56,024 nucleotides of DNA. It comes from Coriobacteriales bacterium. Its GTDB lineage: Bacteria; Actinomycetota; Coriobacteriia; Coriobacteriales; UBA8131. The notes beneath the pieces were generated by a model, which was not told the origin of the DNA, ran no database searches, and saw nothing but the letters and a program-made list of their open reading frames with translations. The stretch is taken from assembly GCA_031263025.1 (NCBI GenBank), contig JAISGO010000046.1:1-56024 (forward strand), given 5' to 3'. Each line of letters starts with the position of its first letter. Position 1 is the first letter of the stretch. Of the stretch, positions 3,644-33,148 are shown in pieces. Made by a program: the position numbers and the translations under genes.

Positions 3644-4357
3644 CTACAAGAAATGCATCTCATTCAACGGCGAGTAAACAAACCAGGCTTGGGTGATCAC
3701 ATTGCTCAGGGGCACATCGCCGAAATAACGGCTGTCCGAGGAATTGGTACGGTTGTCCCCCATTACCCAGATACAGTTCGCGGCTACCTTGTGCGGATAG
3801 GTGATGGTTATCCCGGGCGCGGTCGTCAGGGGCAGCGAGGGCTTGCCGTCGGTGTAGGGCTCGCTTAGGGCCTTACCGTTGACCACGACCTTGCCATTAA
3901 CTAGGTTAACCGTGTCCCCAGCAGTCGCGATTACCCGCTTAAGTAGGTCCTTGCTGCTCAGTTTGTCTTTGAAGACAATCACGTCGCCGGGCTCAGGCTG
4001 GCGAAACCAATACTGTACGTTTTCGGTCATGATCAGGCTGCCCGTCATCACAGTATCCTCCATCGAACCGGAGGGCACCTCATAATTGTCGATCGTGCCG
4101 GAAACGCGCAACCCCCCAACCACCAGGAAAACGACCAGGACGATTATGATATAGGGCAACAGGCTACGGAAAAGGGCGTATTTACGCGGCTTTTTCACGA
4201 AATCCTGGGGCTCCATCTGCAACATCTGGTGCGAGGCTGGAGGCTGCCCCATCAAAGGCGGGATTGGCTTGATGCGATTGTTTTGATTGTCCTCGTCCAT
4301 GGATCCGTCCGTTCCGACCTTCATACAAGCACTTCCGCCCGCCGAACCAGGAAACAT
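3644..4357 (-). CDS. lepB: Signal peptidase I (S26 family)
   Basis: Motifs PSGSMEDT (catalytic Ser), LKRVIATAGD (catalytic Lys) and GDNRTNSSDSRYFG. The track ORF runs to 4486 but would overlap rubrerythrin. Internal ATGs at 4357 or 4324 are more plausible starts. Confidence 0.85.
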   Translation of the reverse strand: MFPGSAGGSACMKVGTDGSMDEDNQNNRIKPIPPLMGQPPASHQMLQMEPQDFVKKPRKYALFRSLLPYIIIVLVVFLVVGGLRVSGTIDNYEVPSGSMEDTVMTGSLIMTENVQYWFRQPEPGDVIVFKDKLSSKDLLKRVIATAGDTVNLVNGKVVVNGKALSEPYTDGKPSLPLTTAPGITITYPHKVAANCIWVMGDNRTNSSDSRYFGDVPLSNVITQAWFVYSPLNEMHFL

Positions 4358-4406
4358 ATCACTGGCCAGACAGGCGGAAGTGTATTCAGCATAATCTAAG
4401 GAAGAC

Positions 4407-4964
4407 CTAGAAGTTCTCGCACAGCTCCTCAAAATAAGCTTGGGGATGGCCACAAACCGGACACACCGCCGGCGCCTCGCTGCCAAAATGGATATGGCCG
4501 CACTGGCGGCACTTCCAGGCCTTGACCCCGTCGCGCTTAAAGACCGCGCCGGCTTCCAGGCGGGCGATCAGTTGGTTGTAACGCTCGTCGTGGTGCTTCT
4601 CGATCTTACCGACTTCCTCGAACAACTGGGCGATCTGGGTGAAGCCCTCGGCTTTAGCGGTCTCGGCGAAACCCTGATACATCTCGGTCCACTCAAAGTG
4701 CTCGCCAGCTGCCGCATCCTGCAGATTGAACTTGGTGTCCAAGACCTTGCCGGGAGTGTTGCCGCCATCGTGCAGAATTTTGAACCACATCTTAGCGTGG
4801 GTGTTCTCGTTGTGCGAGGTCTCGCCGAAGATAGCGCCGATCTGCTGATAGCCCTCCTTGGCTGCCTGCTTTGAGTAGTAACCGTATTTAACTGAAGCCT
4901 GGGATTCGCCGGCAAAGGCCGCCTCCAGGTTCTTCTTGGTTTCGGATGTGTTGAAATCAGCCAT
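4407..4964 (-). CDS. rbr: Rubrerythrin
   Basis: 185 aa. Ferritin-like four-helix region (EAAFAGESQA, ENTHAKMW, EHFEWTEMY, EKHHDERY) plus a C-terminal rubredoxin-like CRQCG...CPVCG. Confidence 0.9.
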   Translation of the reverse strand: MADFNTSETKKNLEAAFAGESQASVKYGYYSKQAAKEGYQQIGAIFGETSHNENTHAKMWFKILHDGGNTPGKVLDTKFNLQDAAAGEHFEWTEMYQGFAETAKAEGFTQIAQLFEEVGKIEKHHDERYNQLIARLEAGAVFKRDGVKAWKCRQCGHIHFGSEAPAVCPVCGHPQAYFEELCENF

Positions 4965-5107
4965 GATTCTTCCTCTCTTTTCTTTGACTAGACCTTATTA
5001 TAGCTTTATGGCCCCCACTGTCTCAGAGGGCAAGTAACGCTTCGATGTCCTTTCAGGGCGCGCATCTCTTTTCTCATCGTTTTCGCGAAGCGCTTTCTGC
5101 CGATAAG

Positions 5108-5133
5108 GAAAAGGGCCCCGAAAGGCCCTTTTC
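5108..5133 (-). terminator. Hairpin terminator candidate downstream of the NlpC/P60 gene
   Basis: gaaaagggcc / ggcccttttc forms a 10-bp stem with a 6-nt loop. The flanking A/T tracts sit inside the stem, giving a bidirectional look. Confidence 0.5.
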
Positions 5134-5155
5134 CCATGTGCTTCACCTATTCAGA

Positions 5156-6310
5156 TCAATCGAAATGCAGGGCGCATTGGAAGTTGGAGGCGCTGCCATA
5201 GCGAATCCCCCAGGCTGCCCCCATCGCCTCGAGGGTCTGGCCGCCGCCGATATAGATGGCCACGTGACCGGGGTGCCAGAGCACGTCACCGGGCTGGGCC
5301 TCGCTCACCGAGTAGCGCGCGTCAGCGCTCGCGTACATCGCGCTCGAGCTATGTGGCAAGCTCGCCACACCGGCCTTGGCATAGCAGTACTTCACGAAAC
5401 CAGAACAATCGAAGTAGAAATTCGAGGTATCGTAAGCGCCCCAGACATAGTGGGAACTATGTGCCGGAGAGCCTACCCGTTTGTAGACATAGCTGGCCCA
5501 TTTGACTACACCGCTGTGGCCGGTAGCGTTGGCCGGGCGCGGAGCATAGGTCACGCTGCTGCTGCCCGATCCGCCAGGGTTACTGGGCGTATGAGTCGCG
5601 GCTTCTTCCAAGGCCAGGGCCCTGGCCTTGGCGTTGAGGCCCTTTAGTTCGGACTTCAAGGAGGCCTGGGCGGAAGCCGCCTGGTCACGAGCCTGTTTGG
5701 CCTCGCCCGCCTTCTCGCTGGCGACCTGAGCTTGGTTGTTGTACTGGGTATAGGCGTCCTGCGCGGTGGCCTTGGCCGTCTTGTTCTTGGCAATCAAATC
5801 GGCGTTGTCGTCATTGATGCCGTTGAGCAGGGTCCAGGTCGAGGTGAAAGACTGGAAAGAGGTCGCCCCCAGGAGCACGTCGAGAAAGGAGAAAGGGCCC
5901 TGTTTATACATCGCGGCCGCACGCTGGCCAAGTTCGCTTTGGGTCTGGTTAATCACTTGATTGGCGGCGTTGATACGTTTTTGTTGGGCTGCCATGTTGG
6001 TCTTGGCGGTCTGCTCGTCGCTGAGGGCGGAATTATAGGTATCGGACAGATTATCGAGCTTGGTCTGCTGCGCGGCAATCTTGGCGGCTACCGACTTGGC
6101 CTTGGCCTTGACTTGCGCCGCAGTCTCGGCATAGGCGAGATTGACCGACGATGCGCCCGAGCGGACAGGCTGGAAAGGCAGGAAAGTCACTGCCAGGAGC
6201 AAGGCTAGGGTCAGGCATACGAATCCGCGTAGGACTCCGCGTGCAGAAAGAAATCCTCCCGTTTTTGCGACATTTTGCTCTCTGCGCATTCTGTCTCCTT
6301 GAGTTGACAT
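5156..6310 (-). CDS. Secreted NlpC/P60 (C40) peptidoglycan hydrolase with an N-terminal coiled-coil region
   Basis: N-terminal TM/signal segment, an Ala/Gln/Lys-rich coiled-coil-like middle, and C-terminal FDCSGFVKYCY...GHVAIYIGGGQTLEA (catalytic Cys/His of NlpC/P60). Confidence 0.85.
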   Translation of the reverse strand: MSTQGDRMRREQNVAKTGGFLSARGVLRGFVCLTLALLLAVTFLPFQPVRSGASSVNLAYAETAAQVKAKAKSVAAKIAAQQTKLDNLSDTYNSALSDEQTAKTNMAAQQKRINAANQVINQTQSELGQRAAAMYKQGPFSFLDVLLGATSFQSFTSTWTLLNGINDDNADLIAKNKTAKATAQDAYTQYNNQAQVASEKAGEAKQARDQAASAQASLKSELKGLNAKARALALEEAATHTPSNPGGSGSSSVTYAPRPANATGHSGVVKWASYVYKRVGSPAHSSHYVWGAYDTSNFYFDCSGFVKYCYAKAGVASLPHSSSAMYASADARYSVSEAQPGDVLWHPGHVAIYIGGGQTLEAMGAAWGIRYGSASNFQCALHFD

Positions 6311-6365
6311 CCCTTATATGGTAACACAAGCCTCGTCCAAGTCAAGCCAGCCCAGCTAGAATGGT

Positions 6366-23943: not shown

Positions 23944-24807
23944 TTATGAGACCATACGAGTAAGCAGTCGGTCGAGATCCTCTTCGTCTTTGAATTCGAT
24001 CTCTATCTTGTTCTTGCCCCTAAGGCTCTTGACACGCACGTTAGTATCCAAGACCTGGCGGAGCTTCCTTGCCGCAATCTTAAAAGAGCGCGGGGCAGGT
24101 GCGCGTTTGACCCTTTCGATCCCTTGTACCGAATAAAGCCTTGCCATGTTCTCGGTTTCACGCACAGAAAGCTTTTCGTCAACGACCTTGTGGGCAAGCT
24201 TGATTCGGGCAGCTTCATCCGGTAGGGACAATATCGCACGTCCGTGTCCTGCGCTCAACTTATTGTCGAACATCAACTCCTGGACTTCTTCGGGCAGATC
24301 AAGCAAACGCAGGGCATTAGAGATAGTGGTCGGTTGCTTCGAGACGGCTTCGGCAAGATCTTTCTGCTTTTTACCCGATAACTCAATCAGGCGCTTATAG
24401 CCGCGAGCCTCCTCGATTGGATTAAGATTAGCTCTTTGCAAATTCTCCACTAAGGCAATCTGTTGGGTCTCTACATCATCCAAAGCCATGATCTTAGCGG
24501 GGATAGTCTCCATGCCGATCTTCTTGCAGGCCTGCCAGCGGCGCTCGCCAGCGATGATCTCATATTGGGCATGGCCTTTGCCTTTGTCCGGTAGAGGCCG
24601 CACCAGAATCGGCTGAAGTAAACCGTCTTTTTTAATAGATGCTACTAGTTCTTCTATTTTGTCTTCGTCGAAGTTGCTTCTTGGCTGGTAAGGATTCGGG
24701 CTTATCTTCTTTATGTCTATCTCTAAAAAATCAACGTTCGCGCCGCTCTCCGCAGACGCCTCGCTGAGCAGGACATTCAATCCTTTACCTAGTCCGCCTT
24801 TAGCCAT
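23944..24807 (-). CDS. parB: Chromosome partitioning protein ParB/Spo0J
   Basis: Motifs GLGKGLNVLL, LLQPILVRP and IIAGERRWQA, plus an HTH region. Confidence 0.9.
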   Translation of the reverse strand: MAKGGLGKGLNVLLSEASAESGANVDFLEIDIKKISPNPYQPRSNFDEDKIEELVASIKKDGLLQPILVRPLPDKGKGHAQYEIIAGERRWQACKKIGMETIPAKIMALDDVETQQIALVENLQRANLNPIEEARGYKRLIELSGKKQKDLAEAVSKQPTTISNALRLLDLPEEVQELMFDNKLSAGHGRAILSLPDEAARIKLAHKVVDEKLSVRETENMARLYSVQGIERVKRAPAPRSFKIAARKLRQVLDTNVRVKSLRGKNKIEIEFKDEEDLDRLLTRMVS

Positions 24808-28815: not shown

Positions 28816-28956
28816 TTAGCCAGCCACAGTCAAACGCTTGCGACCCTTAAGGCGCCGGCGCGCCAAAACCCGACGACCACCCTTGGTTGCCATCCGCGCA
28901 CGAAAGCCATGACACTTCGCACGCTTACGCTTATTTGGTTGATAAGTTCTCTTCAT
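28816..28956 (-). CDS. rpmH: 50S ribosomal protein L34
   Basis: Not in the ORF track because it is under 60 aa. Hand translation: [46 protein letters not shown]. Confidence 0.95.
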
Positions 28957-28989
28957 CTTCTTCAGTCCTTCTTGCTAATCAGAAAGTAT

Positions 28990-29260
28990 CATTATACACG
29001 ATACTCCGTACCAGGTAGGCATCGTGTTTGTGGCTTTTTAGGAATATCTCACACAAACTCACAAAGAAGCAGGGTAGGTTTTTTACTTTTGAAGATAGTT
29101 TTTCACAGCTGTTAAATTTTTTGTGAGTTTCTTAGAAACTACCTGTATTCATACGTGTTTTCTTTTCGCCATTTTTCAAAATTGTTTCTTTTTATCCAAT
29201 TTCATAGATGTTTCGCAACGTAGATAGGAGAAGTTGTTCGGCAATATCTGTGAATTACTT
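28990..29260. promoter_or_regulatory. oriC-like AT-rich region 1 with a cluster of DnaA-box-like 9-mers
   Basis: TTATACACG 28992-29000; TATCTCACA 29045-29053; AAACTCACA 29055-29063; TTTTTCACA 29099-29107; TGTGAGTTT (rc AAACTCACA) 29122-29130; TTATCCAAT 29192-29200; TGTGAATTA (rc TAATTCACA) 29249-29257. Confidence 0.6.
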
Positions 29261-29283
29261 TGTTAAAAGCCTATAATACTGAA

Positions 29284-30099
29284 ATGCCCCTAGATAGCCC
29301 AAATATTAATATGGTGCCCTCTACTGAAAGTGTCCATTCCGCACGTATTGCCGTATATGACTCGATGTTGGCTGCTCCTCGAGTAGTGGAAATCGAGGAA
29401 AGCGATATTTCAGCTTTCATTGAAAACATTGCTGACACAACTTATCGTTCCGCAAAGGAGCTCGGTGGCCGTCTGCCTTTTACCGTCATCCATGAAATCG
29501 CTGAGAACTTCATCCACGCGCACTTCCTTGAATGTACGGTTTCTATCCTCGAAGGCGGAAACACCATCCGTTTCTCCGACCAAGGCCCTGGCATCAGGAA
29601 AAAAGAACAGGTGCTTGAACCTGGAGTAACCTCGGCCAGTCAAGAGATGAAACGCTATATCAAAGGGGTCGGATCAGGTTTTCCTATCGTTAATGAGTTT
29701 TTACAGACTTCTGGTGGCTATCTCTTGATTGATGACAACGCCGTTTCTGGCGCGGTTATCACCATTGCCCTAACCAGCCAAGCTACTTCATCAAACCATA
29801 CCCATTTAACGGTTTCACCTCACTTACAAGAAAATTCCGGTTTTAGCCTTTCCGCTTCATCTGTTCTTTCCTTAAAAACAAATGAAGTGTCCGCCCTTGA
29901 ATTTATCTACGATAACGCCGTGGCTGGACCTACCGATCTCTCTAGAGCCTTTAAAATCAGCACGGCGACAGCTTTTAGGACCCTAAAAAAATTAGAGAAC
30001 CAAGGATTTATTGAACGTACACCTAATAAAAAAAGAATTATTACGAACTCCGGTGTAAACTATATCGATAATGTCCGATCAAATAAGCACACCTCTTAA
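29284..30099 (+). CDS. GHKL (SpoIIAB/RsbW-like) ATPase domain fused to a C-terminal winged-helix DNA-binding domain
   Basis: N-box-like HEIAENFIHAH, G1 SDQGPGI, G2 GVGSGFPIV, and C-terminal wHTH-like LSRAFKISTATAFRTLKKLENQGFIER. TATAAT at 29272-29277, then 6 nt, then ATG at 29284 (leaderless geometry). The track start is a TTG at 29260. Confidence 0.6.
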   Translation: MPLDSPNINMVPSTESVHSARIAVYDSMLAAPRVVEIEESDISAFIENIADTTYRSAKELGGRLPFTVIHEIAENFIHAHFLECTVSILEGGNTIRFSDQGPGIRKKEQVLEPGVTSASQEMKRYIKGVGSGFPIVNEFLQTSGGYLLIDDNAVSGAVITIALTSQATSSNHTHLTVSPHLQENSGFSLSASSVLSLKTNEVSALEFIYDNAVAGPTDLSRAFKISTATAFRTLKKLENQGFIERTPNKKRIITNSGVNYIDNVRSNKHTS

Positions 30100-31498
30100 A
30101 ACCACCTGGCAGCAAATACTTGATTTGCTCGCAGAAATCGATGAGACTAAATCTTCCCGAGCCCAGGGCATCTTGGCTAATCTACACCCGATTAGCCTTG
30201 AAAACCATATCTTGCTTCTTGGCACTGAATTAGTAATCGCCAAACAATGGACAGAAAAACATTATAAGAAATTTATCACTGACTCCTTACAAATCATCTT
30301 CGGTGAACCTTATGATGTGTCCGTCATCATCGAAAACGAACAGGACTCCCAACAAGCTCAAACGCAGACAACTAATAAAGCCTCCCAGCAAGACACCAGT
30401 ACTTTTTCCACAATCTTTCCTTCTAAAAATAAAGAAGACACAACACCTCCTCTAATCACTAACAAGACTTTTGAGAATTTTGTGGTTGGAGAATCAAACC
30501 GCACCGCCTATGACACTGCCCTCGGCGTTGCTGGCGCGCCAGGCGCTGGACTTAATCCTTTTTTTATTTATGGTCGTTCTGGGCTTGGTAAAACCCATCT
30601 CCTTTTTGCTATATATAATTATATTCGCCGTTATCTACCTCATCTTAAGGTCTGTTATGAGGCTACTATAGACTTTGTCAATGAATATATTGAAGCCGGC
30701 GCTTCACATAGTTACGACCGTTTCCGGCGTAAATATTTTAGTTATGACGTTTTCCTACTTGACGATGTTCAACAACTTGAAGGTAAAGTTGAGACGACGA
30801 ATATGCTCTTCGAACTATTTAACAATTTCATCATGCATAATAAGGCAATCGTTTTAAGCGCTGACCGTTCTCCTTCGGAAATTGATATCGACGAGCGTTA
30901 TACCTCACGTTTTGCAATGGGAATCACAGCAGATATACAAAAGCCAACTTTTGAGATGAAAGTAGCAATCTTCAACAATTTCAAGGATTATTATTGCAAC
31001 ACCCTCCGTATTAATAATTTTAAGCTCGATAATGAAATAATCGAATATATCATCGGCCTCTCTGGGCCGAACATGCGCGAACTTGATAGCGCTGCGATGA
31101 ATTTGGTTTATTTCTATAAGAGTCGGCGTGGTGACCAAAACTATCAAAAATTTGACCTTAAAACGGTTGCTAGTGTGATCAAAGGTTCTTTCTCCCACAC
31201 AAGTAAGGAAATCTCAATCAAGGAGATCCAAAAAGCCGTAGAAAAACATTTTAACGTCACGCATAATGAACTTCTTAGTAAGTCAAAAAAGCATGATATC
31301 TCATCAGCAAGACAAATAGCGATGTATCTGAGTACTGTGCTAACCTCTGCTTCGACTCCAGATATTGGTAATGCTTTTGGCGGCTTTCATCACACTGCGG
31401 TGATGTACGCAAAGAAAAATATTATAAAAAACTATATGAGTAACCCACAGAAAAAGGCGGAGATAGAAAACCTTGTGAGATTATTAAGAAATTCTTAG
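30071..31498 (+). CDS. dnaA: Chromosomal replication initiator protein DnaA
   Basis: AAA+ motifs GRSGLGKTHLL and LLDDVQQL. C-terminal DNA-binding domain: SARQIAMYL...IGNAFGGFHHTAVMYA. Confidence 0.95.
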   Translation: MSDQISTPLKTTWQQILDLLAEIDETKSSRAQGILANLHPISLENHILLLGTELVIAKQWTEKHYKKFITDSLQIIFGEPYDVSVIIENEQDSQQAQTQTTNKASQQDTSTFSTIFPSKNKEDTTPPLITNKTFENFVVGESNRTAYDTALGVAGAPGAGLNPFFIYGRSGLGKTHLLFAIYNYIRRYLPHLKVCYEATIDFVNEYIEAGASHSYDRFRRKYFSYDVFLLDDVQQLEGKVETTNMLFELFNNFIMHNKAIVLSADRSPSEIDIDERYTSRFAMGITADIQKPTFEMKVAIFNNFKDYYCNTLRINNFKLDNEIIEYIIGLSGPNMRELDSAAMNLVYFYKSRRGDQNYQKFDLKTVASVIKGSFSHTSKEISIKEIQKAVEKHFNVTHNELLSKSKKHDISSARQIAMYLSTVLTSASTPDIGNAFGGFHHTAVMYAKKNIIKNYMSNPQKKAEIENLVRLLRNS

Positions 31499-31652
31499 CT
31501 TAAGCCTTTTTGTTTGGGTGTAGCTAAAAAAATCTCACAGATTAAAAAAATATATACGCATAAGTAATGGTTTAGGTTTGATAAAACTCACAATCTCACA
31601 GGACTTATAGTTATTAACTATTATTTATAACTACTTTATAAAAGGAGAGCAG
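31499..31652. promoter_or_regulatory. oriC-like region 2 (dnaA-dnaN spacer) with the same 9-mers and AT-rich unwinding candidates
   Basis: AATCTCACA 31531-31539; AAACTCACA 31584-31592; AATCTCACA 31592-31600. Very AT-rich runs at 31540-31570 and 31603-31645. Confidence 0.6.
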
Positions 31653-32747
31653 ATGAAATTCTCTATTGAAAAGACGGCCTTGTCAAAGGCGCTTAATATT
31701 GTTTCTAAGGGCATCATGGCGAGAGGCGCGATTCCTATCTACAGCGGAATCTATGTTGAGGCTTCAAATGATGGTTTAATCATTAAAACTACCGATCTTG
31801 AAATTTCTATCAAGACTATCGTTTCTGCTAACGTTGAAAGTCTTGGCAAGACCATCGTTCCAGGAAAACTTTTTCTTGATATTATTAAAAGCTTGCCAAA
31901 TGGGGCAGTAACTTTTGAACAAAATAATAACCAAGCAAATGTTCTCACAACCGGCGCGGTTTTTAATCTGCATACGATGAGTGCTGATGATTTTCCTGAA
32001 TTTCCTGCAACAGCCACAGAAAAAACGGTGAGTATCGAAAGCCAGATGTTTAGTCAGGCGGTTAATCGGGTGGTAAAAGCTGTTTCAAAAGACGAAACGC
32101 GTGCTATCCTTAATGGTGTTTGTTTAACGGTTAAGCCCGAGGAAACAAGTTTTGTAGCAACAGATTCTTTTCGGCTTTCTCTTTACTCAATAAAAACAGC
32201 TTCTCAACAAAGTATGAATTTAATCATCCCCGGGGCAGTAATCGAAGAAGTCAGCCGTCTTGCCTTAGAGAATAGCGATACCCTAACTATTGGGGAAGCC
32301 AAGAACCAAATTATTTTCAGCTTTGGTAATACCTCTTTTATCTCACGTAAAATCGAGGGGAATTATCCTGACTATAATAAAATTATTCCAGATACTTCCC
32401 TTACGAGCACTAAAATCAAAACGAAAGATTTTCTTGAAGCCATTAAAAGGGTTTCCATCCTTGCTGCTGAACATACAGCAATACGTATTAAGATAGAGGA
32501 TAACGTACTTACTGCTTTTGCGAATACCCAAGATGTTGGTGAAGCAACCGCAAGTCTTGACTGTGAACAACAGGGGGAGGCCATCGAGATTGGCTTTAAT
32601 CATCAATACATTCTTGATGGGCTTTCAAGTGTTTCTGCTGAGACTTGTGAGTTTGATACCCAAACCCCTGGTAAGCCTGGTGTTCTTAAAGAAGCCGACG
32701 AAAAAACCAGTTTCATCTATTTAATGATGCCGGTCAACCTTAATTAA
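31653..32747 (+). CDS. dnaN: DNA polymerase III beta sliding clamp
   Basis: 364 aa. MKFSIEKTALSKALNIVSKG..., three-domain length, downstream of dnaA, SD AAGGAGAG. Confidence 0.95.
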   Translation: MKFSIEKTALSKALNIVSKGIMARGAIPIYSGIYVEASNDGLIIKTTDLEISIKTIVSANVESLGKTIVPGKLFLDIIKSLPNGAVTFEQNNNQANVLTTGAVFNLHTMSADDFPEFPATATEKTVSIESQMFSQAVNRVVKAVSKDETRAILNGVCLTVKPEETSFVATDSFRLSLYSIKTASQQSMNLIIPGAVIEEVSRLALENSDTLTIGEAKNQIIFSFGNTSFISRKIEGNYPDYNKIIPDTSLTSTKIKTKDFLEAIKRVSILAAEHTAIRIKIEDNVLTAFANTQDVGEATASLDCEQQGEAIEIGFNHQYILDGLSSVSAETCEFDTQTPGKPGVLKEADEKTSFIYLMMPVNLN

Positions 32748-33053
32748 ATGAAAGCCTCCCTACAAGAACAATATGGACTTTTATTAGAGAGTTTAGGTGG
32801 CAAGCAAAGCGCGTCGCGGGTAAAGGCCAAACAAGAGTTTCTCGCTTTATTGCCTTCCCAAAAAAGACAATATATTGATAATGTTGTCTTTATACCAGGC
32901 GAAAAAGGAAAAATAAGGGTCTGGGTGAAAAACTCGCTGATCTCCGCTGATTTAAAAATGCAGGAGCAATACCTTCGTTTTGCTTTAAGTAAGGCATTAA
33001 AGCAGGATATCAAAGGTATATATTTTTCACTTTGTCACAATACGTTACAATAG
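32748..33053 (+). CDS. DUF721/DciA-like small protein (tentative)
   Basis: 101 aa starting at the nucleotide after the dnaN stop. The pattern ...[42 protein letters not shown] resembles DUF721 proteins found near dnaN/recF in Actinobacteria. Assigned from memory of the family only. Confidence 0.45.
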
Positions 33054-33060
33054 TCCACCT

Positions 33061-33148
33061 GGAGAGATGGCAGAGTGGTCGAATGCGGCGGTCTTGAAAA
33101 CCGTTGACCCATAAGGGCCCGGGGGTTCGAATCCCCCTCTCTCCGCCA
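33061..33148 (+). tRNA. tRNA-Ser (anticodon TGA)
   Basis: Acceptor GGAGAGA/TCTCTCC, anticodon loop CTTGAAA, long variable arm, TPsiC GGGGGTTCGAATCCCCC, encoded CCA. Confidence 0.9.

Follow-up and report, generated by a model that had tools for sequence, protein, structure and literature searches.

What is a gene for an ATPase fused to a DNA-binding domain doing directly in front of dnaA, at a bacterial replication origin? The question is raised by a 56,024-nucleotide stretch of DNA from a Coriobacteriales bacterium (assembly GCA_031263025.1, contig JAISGO010000046.1), referred to here as the window. An annotation made from the DNA letters alone (the original prediction) had described an open reading frame (ORF) of 271 amino acids between an upstream cluster of DnaA-box-like sites and dnaA, with its 3' end overlapping the dnaA start. 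Both the position and the overlap, which is 29 nt long (30071 to 30099), were confirmed in the window. The frame is open on the plus strand from a TTG at 29260; the 271-residue product runs from the ATG at 29284 to the stop codon at 30097 to 30099, and a second ATG at 29311, chosen by a public gene caller (P0001), gives a 262-residue product. The dnaA start at ATG 30071 is credible because the DnaA proteins of relatives align from residues 2 to 13 of that reading, and the dnaA product matches the Pfam families Bac_DnaA (160 bits) and Bac_DnaA_C (84 bits). The analysis described below indicates that the ORF accompanies dnaA throughout the class Coriobacteriia and makes it a candidate regulator of the initiator or of its origin.

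Homologs of the window ORF were found in 1552 protein clusters at E ≤ 1e-3, the best with about 50% identity. Because these homologs are so numerous and reach E = 1e-73, the ORF is a real gene. When an ortholog from a Gordonibacter metagenome-assembled genome was used as the query, 4383 clusters were found at E ≤ 1e-10. Among 1.84 billion representatives, a profile of the family retrieved 686 clusters at E ≤ 1e-3, with 306 at E ≤ 1e-30; as judged by this profile, the family is sharply delimited. Named members come from Gordonibacter pamelaeae, G. urolithinfaciens, Eggerthella sinensis, E. guodeyinii, E. hominis, Paraeggerthella, Rubneribacter, Arabiibacter, and Raoultibacter. Databases call these proteins "ATP-binding protein," "helix-turn-helix domain-containing protein," or "TrmB/ArsR/MarR family regulator"; NCBI uses "TrmB/ArsR family transcriptional regulator," and several members carry the JGI label "anti-sigma regulatory factor (Ser/Thr protein kinase)." A full-text literature search found no publication on the ORF protein, in keeping with the earlier statement that no characterized equivalent was known.

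A survey of the rpmH-dnaA interval in relatives, which the original prediction had set beforehand as a refuting test, recovered orthologs at this position across Coriobacteriia. In a scan of one genome per species, at least 474 genomes, nearly all of them from Coriobacteriia, held a relative of the ORF, and the synteny counts given here rest on the best 80 of these at least 474 loci (L001 to L080). Apart from a few bins with probably wrong labels, the best 80 loci belong to Coriobacteriia. In 72 of the 80, dnaA immediately follows the ORF and has the same orientation; in 66 of those 72, the order is rpmH< ORF> dnaA> dnaN> (arrowheads give the direction of each gene), as it is on the chromosome of cultured G. 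pamelaeae. All 80 loci have the gene next to dnaA or to its DnaA-box cluster, and none has it elsewhere. Measured from the stop codon of the ORF to the first plausible start of dnaA, the spacing in relatives ranges from −14 to about +270 nt and is mostly below 60 nt, and the two genes overlap in three genomes, the window included. Tight linkage between the ORF and dnaA is therefore general, whereas the overlap, which had been presented as part of the coupling, is particular to a few genomes.

The linkage has also been retained where the locus has been rearranged. Six loci (L015, L054, L063, L065, L073, and L076) carry the ORF and dnaA as a jointly inverted pair with respect to dnaN and rpmH. 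A large DnaA-box cluster remains upstream of the ORF in the five of these that were scanned, and in L063 a DnaA-trio-like element is still found downstream of dnaA. L049 and L059 have the ORF and dnaA pointing away from each other, on either side of the box cluster. Linkage of the ORF with dnaA or with the box cluster thus outlasts at least two independent kinds of rearrangement. These data establish the gene as a class-wide companion of dnaA inside the origin module across Coriobacteriia.

Four of the 80 loci (L014, L037, L062, and L079) are from genomes labeled Oscillibacter, Eubacteriales, Melainabacteria, and Alloprevotella. Their rpmH genes are Eggerthellaceae-like (77 to 88% identity), as is their gene order, and the odd labels probably reflect bin contamination or mislabeling.

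The architecture of the encoded protein is constant in the family and consists of a variable N-terminal extension, a GHKL domain, a disordered linker, and a winged helix. Pfam and the structure models support a GHKL-type ATPase fused to a C-terminal MarR/TrmB-type winged helix, in line with the fusion originally proposed. The window protein matches Pfam HATPase_c with 31.2 bits (cut-off, 26.4) over residues 66 to 163, and this family was matched by 20/20 sampled members (best E = 2.6e-11). Invariant residues were called from an alignment of 20 diverse members with a mean column identity of 45% over the whole protein, a figure that the ATPase domain far exceeds. E71, N75, D99, G101, G103, G128, G130, and G132 are invariant. 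They fall within an N box (E71-I-A-E-N75-F-I-H78-A, containing E71-x3-N75), a G1 box (D99-Q-G-P-G103-I), and a G2 box (G128-V-G-S-G132-F-P). The ATP lid contains invariant K107, P113-G114, S117-A118, and M122, the final strand of the domain carries G156-x-V-x-T160, and the domain begins with a conserved beta-hairpin plus helix (ARIAVYD..PR). At the level of sequence, the set of Bergerat-fold nucleotide-binding motifs is intact, and the invariance of the N, G1, and G2 motifs among members that share about 45% identity argues for retained nucleotide binding.

AlphaFold2 (AF2) modeled the full-length protein with a predicted local distance difference test (pLDDT) score of 74 and the ATPase domain by itself with a pLDDT of 80 and a predicted template modeling (TM) score of 0.81. 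The elements of the model follow the order two strands, helix, N-box helix, two strands leading to G1, lid, G2 helix, and two strands, which in the model is the order expected of a Bergerat fold. With the ATPase domain as the query, the top 50 Foldseek matches were histidine-kinase catalytic domains or related GHKL kinases with probabilities of 0.66 to 1.0, among them HK853, ZraS, EnvZ, CheA P4, CpxA, KinB, and BCKDK. A search of PDB sequences with the family profile found KinB (E = 1.8e-4), CheA, MutL, and VicK. Both searches point to histidine-kinase catalytic domains as the nearest relatives of the ATPase domain, which, judging from the mere 686 clusters that the family profile recovers, is highly diverged from ordinary kinases.

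The ORF shares its N, G1, and G2 motifs and, as modeled, its order of strands and helices with the catalytic domains of histidine kinases (HK853, KinB, CheA P4, and CpxA). Unlike sensor histidine kinases, however, the ORF lacks a DHp/HisKA domain with its phospho-acceptor histidine region and has no sensor or membrane part. HisKA was not matched in the window protein, in which about 45 residues (beta-beta-alpha) precede the N-box helix. In further contrast to histidine kinases, no response regulator was found near the ORF, and its ATPase domain is fused to a DNA-binding domain of its own.

The linker is modeled with a pLDDT below 50, and its length varies from about 10 to 300 amino acids across the family; the long members contain no extra Pfam domain. 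The winged helix that follows matches Pfam MarR with 35.4 bits (cut-off, 24.6) over residues 200 to 249 of the window protein and is modeled with a pLDDT of about 97. In Foldseek it superposes on MarR, Hpr, and MexR with a root mean square deviation of 0.9 to 2.5 Å over about 70 to 80 residues; matches to the whole protein were weak, the model consisting of two domains and a floppy lid. In the model of residues 199 to 270, one helix precedes the helix-turn-helix, after the disordered linker, and one follows the wing; as modeled, the winged helix is without the flanking N- and C-terminal dimerization helices of true MarR proteins. S226, T229, and R232 in the recognition helix and K250 and R251 in the wing do not vary within the class, and this invariance suggests that the DNA target is conserved too. 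The PADLOC defense-system models were tried as well and matched nothing more specific than a generic winged helix-turn-helix.

The DNA on either side of the ORF-dnaA pair has the features of an origin. In relatives, TTATCCACA (≤1 mismatch) occurs at 3.9/kb in the rpmH-ORF spacer and 4.3/kb in the dnaA-dnaN spacer, compared with 0.19/kb in flanking genes, and the rpmH-ORF spacers of 69 relatives hold a median of 11 TTWTNCACA sites (≤1 mismatch). The dnaA-dnaN spacers of relatives (e.g., L077 and L060), like positions 31584 to 31640 of the window, present one or two boxes, then gtgCTTATTACTACTA, and then AT-rich DNA, and k-mer enrichment agrees with a DnaA-trio-like stretch in this spacer. In the basal unwinding system of Bacillus, DnaA boxes are followed by DnaA-trios and the unwinding element. 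By analogy, the dnaA-dnaN spacer resembles this system, and the unwinding site is predicted to lie downstream of dnaA. The cumulative GC-skew minimum of the window is at 30 to 32 kb, and its GC minimum is in the dnaA-dnaN spacer. The upstream spacer presumably acts as the promoter region for an operon of the ORF and dnaA and, at the same time, as the upstream half of a bipartite origin, with the ORF and dnaA predicted to lie between the two halves. The description of the ORF as lying inside oriC therefore holds in the bipartite sense, whereas the predicted unwinding element is in the dnaA-dnaN spacer and not upstream.

The reported DnaA-box-like cluster likewise needs a qualification, since neither spacer of the window contains canonical TTATCCACA with ≤1 mismatch. 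What is enriched is a variant, A[AT]CTCACA: of 20 copies in the 56-kb window, 6 fall within the 481 bp of the two spacers, where about 0.17 would be expected. In the upstream spacer, CTCACA occurs at 29048(+), 29058(+), and 29122(−), and TTCACAG occurs at 29102(+) and 29248(−). In the dnaA-dnaN spacer, CTCACA occurs at 31534, 31587, and 31595 and is followed by CTTATAGTTATTAAC... from 31604; these copies occupy the positions of the canonical boxes of relatives (AAACTCACAATCTCACAGGaCTTATAGTTATT). A[AT]CTCACA, which stands here in place of TT[AT]TCCACA, is more likely to be this lineage's variant of the DnaA box than an operator for the winged helix. The operator reading of CTCACA was dropped, since the copies are sited at canonical-box positions beside trio-like repeats in relatives. 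The DNA-reading signature of the window DnaA (dnaA positions 31380 to 31410) is FHHTAV, compared with (R/K)DH(T/S)(T/S)V in 72 of 75 relatives. Variant boxes together with a deviant DnaA signature may reflect co-variation of the initiator and its box.

Several other properties of the spacers and their surroundings were recorded. No Rfam RNA family was matched in either spacer of the window. A conserved element of about 26 nt, AAGTTACTGTAAATCTGAAAGGAAAA, occurs in the rpmH-ORF spacers of some 16 related loci but not in their flanks; it probably represents the leader and ribosome-binding site of rpmH and not an operator. Between positions 24000 and 38500 of the window, GC content drops smoothly from about 57% to 35 to 38% at 31.2 to 31.8 kb and then recovers, forming a V-shaped trough of about 14 kb that is centered on the predicted unwinding site. 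No comparable broad trough was found in the 8.7-kb loci of relatives. A chimeric contig as the source of the low-GC region was rejected, since the change is a smooth V and not a step.

The conservation of the ATPase domain was compared with that of the proteins encoded beside it. Between the window and the 80 relatives, median identity is 56% for the GHKL domain of the ORF, 46% for the AAA+ core of DnaA, 46% for YidC, 37% for DnaN, and 35% for the winged helix of the ORF. By this measure, selection constrains the ATPase domain more strongly than it does the essential proteins encoded alongside.

A leaderless arrangement of TATAAT, 6 nt, and ATG had been described for the ORF. It is present in the window, where the hexamer at 29272 to 29277 may be the −10 element of a leaderless transcript and no Shine-Dalgarno sequence precedes ATG 29284. 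A consensus scan found no acceptable −35 partner, and the promoter reading of the hexamer is weak. Among the 80 loci, TANNNT was found near some candidate start in 19 and a Shine-Dalgarno sequence of at least 4 nt in 34; the recurrence of the leaderless arrangement in relatives does not exceed chance, and it was rejected as a trait of the family. Between the ORF start and dnaA, the plus strand of the window has no terminator-like site and no consensus promoter was found. Evidence on expression comes from an ortholog in "Candidatus Aphodovivens avicola" (locus L069; ORF at 3914 to 4720 and dnaA at 4730 to 6337). Two chicken-gut metatranscriptomes contained small contigs of similar depth inside this ORF and inside dnaA, and in the same runs no contig came from the 900-bp upstream spacer. 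These contigs suggest, though weakly, that the ortholog is expressed at about the level of dnaA.

We propose that the ORF encodes an ATP-dependent DNA-binding regulator that is made together with DnaA and acts on the dnaA promoter, on the origin, or on both. From its position and conservation, we give this reading a probability of about 50%. The ORF protein would be made in step with DnaA by co-transcription from a box-controlled upstream promoter, with the ORF as the first cistron. Binding of nucleotide to the GHKL domain would alter self-association of the protein; since the winged helix is without MarR dimerization helices, pairing would have to come from the ATPase domain. Pairing would set the strength with which the winged helix binds DNA in the origin or the dnaA promoter region, and the outcome would be dnaA transcription, DnaA assembly at the origin, or both, tuned to the ATP state of the cell. 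Co-transcription, ATP-dependent dimerization, the DNA target, and any effect on replication are what we infer. A bolder form of the proposal, which we hold tentatively and consider possible rather than probable, is that the family is a new class of initiation regulators and the first with a GHKL ATPase: ATP gated, origin bound, stoichiometric with DnaA from the same mRNA, licensing or restraining DnaA assembly at a bipartite oriC in all Coriobacteriia, and maybe essential.

Several points weigh against an ATP-dependent regulator of this kind. The best Foldseek match of the ATPase domain has an E value of only 4e-4, TM-scores are 0.30 to 0.40, and the ATP lid is poorly modeled; support for the GHKL fold is moderate, not tight. 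Catalytic domains of the histidine-kinase type do not normally dimerize on ATP, as those of GyrB, MutL, and MORC do. When the upstream spacers of 69 loci were searched for a shared motif or palindrome with DnaA boxes masked, no conserved operator was found, and the one element recovered was the sequence of about 26 nt described above. The L069 metatranscriptome evidence is at the contig level and of low depth. In a third chicken-gut run, a single contig of 3160 nt spans the spacer, the ORF, and most of dnaA at this locus; its extension over the noncoding spacer may reflect DNA carry-over. The window itself is from a termite-gut metagenome for which there are DNA runs only. Finally, adjacency of genes can persist for reasons other than shared function.

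This last point leads to the most ordinary of the other explanations, in which the ORF is a one-component transcription factor, a sensor of ATP or another ligand with a regulon unrelated to replication, and its position is a frozen accident of the operon history of the class ancestor. The C-terminal 70 residues superpose on MarR-type winged helices at 1 to 2 Å and pass the Pfam MarR cut-off, and Csa3 (CARF plus winged helix-turn-helix) likewise joins a ligand-binding domain to such a helix. Regulators of the MarR, TrmB, and Csa3 types are usually generic, NCBI names the family accordingly, and the failure to find an origin-specific operator in the 69 upstream spacers would be expected. The ORF differs in lacking the dimerization helices of true MarR proteins and in having as its sensor a GHKL ATPase on a disordered linker. 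A linkage that survives rearrangement, a place beside dnaA or the box cluster in 80/80 loci, and a recognition helix that is invariant across the class are hard to reconcile with an accident, and a peripheral regulator would not usually have an ATPase domain that is better conserved than the AAA+ core of DnaA. We regard this explanation as unlikely. We judge as more unlikely still a module of the anti-sigma-kinase or partner-switching kind that binds and possibly phosphorylates DnaA or another initiation protein, with the winged helix anchoring the complex at the origin. The ORF shares with SpoIIAB and RsbW a stand-alone GHKL domain of about 150 amino acids with an extra helix before the N-box helix, so that its size and order are more like theirs than like those of a DHp-linked kinase; an invariant Glu lies four residues before the N-box Asn; the JGI label on several members says the same; and tight coupling to dnaA suits a stoichiometric partner. 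Kinship with SpoIIAB/RsbW, on which the original prediction had built, was nevertheless not upheld. Pfam HATPase_c_2 (PF13581) is absent at E ≤ 1 from the window protein and was matched by 0/20 members, TIGR01925 scored 14.1 bits against a cut-off of 135, neither the PDB-sequence profile search nor the top 50 Foldseek matches included an anti-sigma kinase, and no gene for a sigma factor or STAS antagonist was found in the neighborhood. Anti-sigma kinases also have no DNA-binding domain, whereas the ORF has one.

A structural role was considered as well. The protein might be an ATP-gated DNA clamp or bridge, comparable to GHKL dimers of the MORC/MutL type or to CTP-gated ParB, that tethers the origin for segregation or topology and does not regulate DnaA. 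The N-terminal hairpin is strongly conserved and could serve as an exchange strap, the length and flexibility of the linker that leads to the DNA-binding domain suit a tether, and MutL N-terminal domains were found by the family profile among PDB sequences. Pfam HATPase_c_3 (MutL/MORC type) gave weak matches in 8/20 members, but these are below any threshold (best E = 0.01). Neither an S5-like transducer nor a second dimerization domain was found, no further Pfam domain being present in short or long members, and parA and parB nearby already serve segregation. We consider a clamp or tether the most improbable of these explanations.

Regulation of initiation by a lineage-specific protein would not be unusual. 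Known regulators of DnaA or oriC include Soj/ParA, YabA, SirA, and Spo0A in Bacillus, HobA in Helicobacter, MtrA and AdpA in other Actinomycetota, and CtrA in Caulobacter, and the role proposed for the ORF, in initiation at oriC or dnaA expression, is the same as theirs. Soj/ParA of Bacillus is an ATP-dependent, dimerizing DNA-binding ATPase that switches DnaA activity and would be the nearest analogy in logic, with no homology. Searches of Pfam, NCBIfam, and PDB sequences gave no relation of the ORF to Soj/ParA, YabA, SirA, Hda, DiaA/HobA, SeqA, or response regulators and found kinase, MutL, and winged-helix families only. To our knowledge, no known regulator of DnaA is the first cistron of a dnaA operon inside the origin module, and none uses the GHKL fold. 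The only solved structure matched over the full length of the ORF (279 alignment columns) is DIP2311 (PDB 3lmm), and the match is weak (TM-score, 0.37; 10% identity). We take DIP2311 to consist of an AlbA_2 domain, a GHKL-like HATPase_c_4 domain, and a C-terminal winged helix-turn-helix; if so built, it would be a precedent for the domain order of the ORF. At 556 residues it is much larger than the ORF, and we know of no dnaA link and no function for its family.

The gene order around the ORF in the window is parB< parA< rsmG< jag< yidC< yidD< rnpA< rpmH<, a 327-bp spacer, ORF> dnaA>, a 154-bp spacer, and dnaN>. Further neighbors are tadA and a purM-like gene. A 101-amino-acid ORF without a Pfam match (32748 to 33053) directly follows dnaN and is followed in turn by tRNA-Ser (anticodon TGA) at 33061 to 33148. 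Coordinates of the origin module are given in Table 1.

Table 1. Features of the predicted origin module in the window
Feature	Position	Strand	Basis
rpmH (ribosomal protein L34), left border of the module	28816..28956	−	46-aa ORF; 64-95% identity to rpmH in 76 related loci
Upstream spacer, 327 bp, 34% GC, with variant DnaA boxes	28957..29283		Motif enrichment and equivalent spacers of 69 relatives
TATAAT hexamer	29272..29277	+	Read from the sequence, 6 nt before ATG 29284
ORF, 271 aa: GHKL ATPase domain, variable linker, winged helix	29284..30099	+	ORF calling, Pfam, homologs
GHKL (Bergerat-type) ATP-binding domain, residues 18-166	29335..29781	+	Pfam HATPase_c, invariant columns, AF2 model, Foldseek
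Low-complexity linker, residues 167-195	29782..29868	+	pLDDT <50; gapped alignment
MarR/TrmB-type winged helix-turn-helix, residues 196-266	29869..30081	+	Pfam MarR, pLDDT of about 97, Foldseek, invariant columns
dnaA, 475 aa; start overlaps the ORF 3' end by 29 nt	30071..31498	+	Pfam Bac_DnaA and Bac_DnaA_C
dnaA-dnaN spacer, 154 bp, 28% GC, predicted unwinding site	31499..31652		Layout of relatives, k-mer enrichment, GC-skew and GC minima
dnaN (beta clamp), right border of the module	31653..32747	+	Strong Shine-Dalgarno sequence; 35-45% identity to dnaN of relatives

The novelty of the family lies in familiar domains joined in a new fusion and placed in a new, origin-embedded context. Control of DnaA is largely unknown outside E. 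coli, Bacillus, and Caulobacter, and none has been described for Coriobacteriia in the literature searched. Members of the class include the gut bacteria Eggerthella and Gordonibacter, whose metabolism of drugs and dietary compounds is under study. Should the link to replication fail, the family would still be a clean class-specific marker with a strongly selected, unexplained function. Its position and conservation make the ORF a strong candidate regulator of chromosome replication. If this is true, replication control would gain a fold and a logic that are both new to it, the logic being that of a regulator translated from the initiator's own mRNA, and the unusual rpmH-dnaA interval of Coriobacteriia would be explained.

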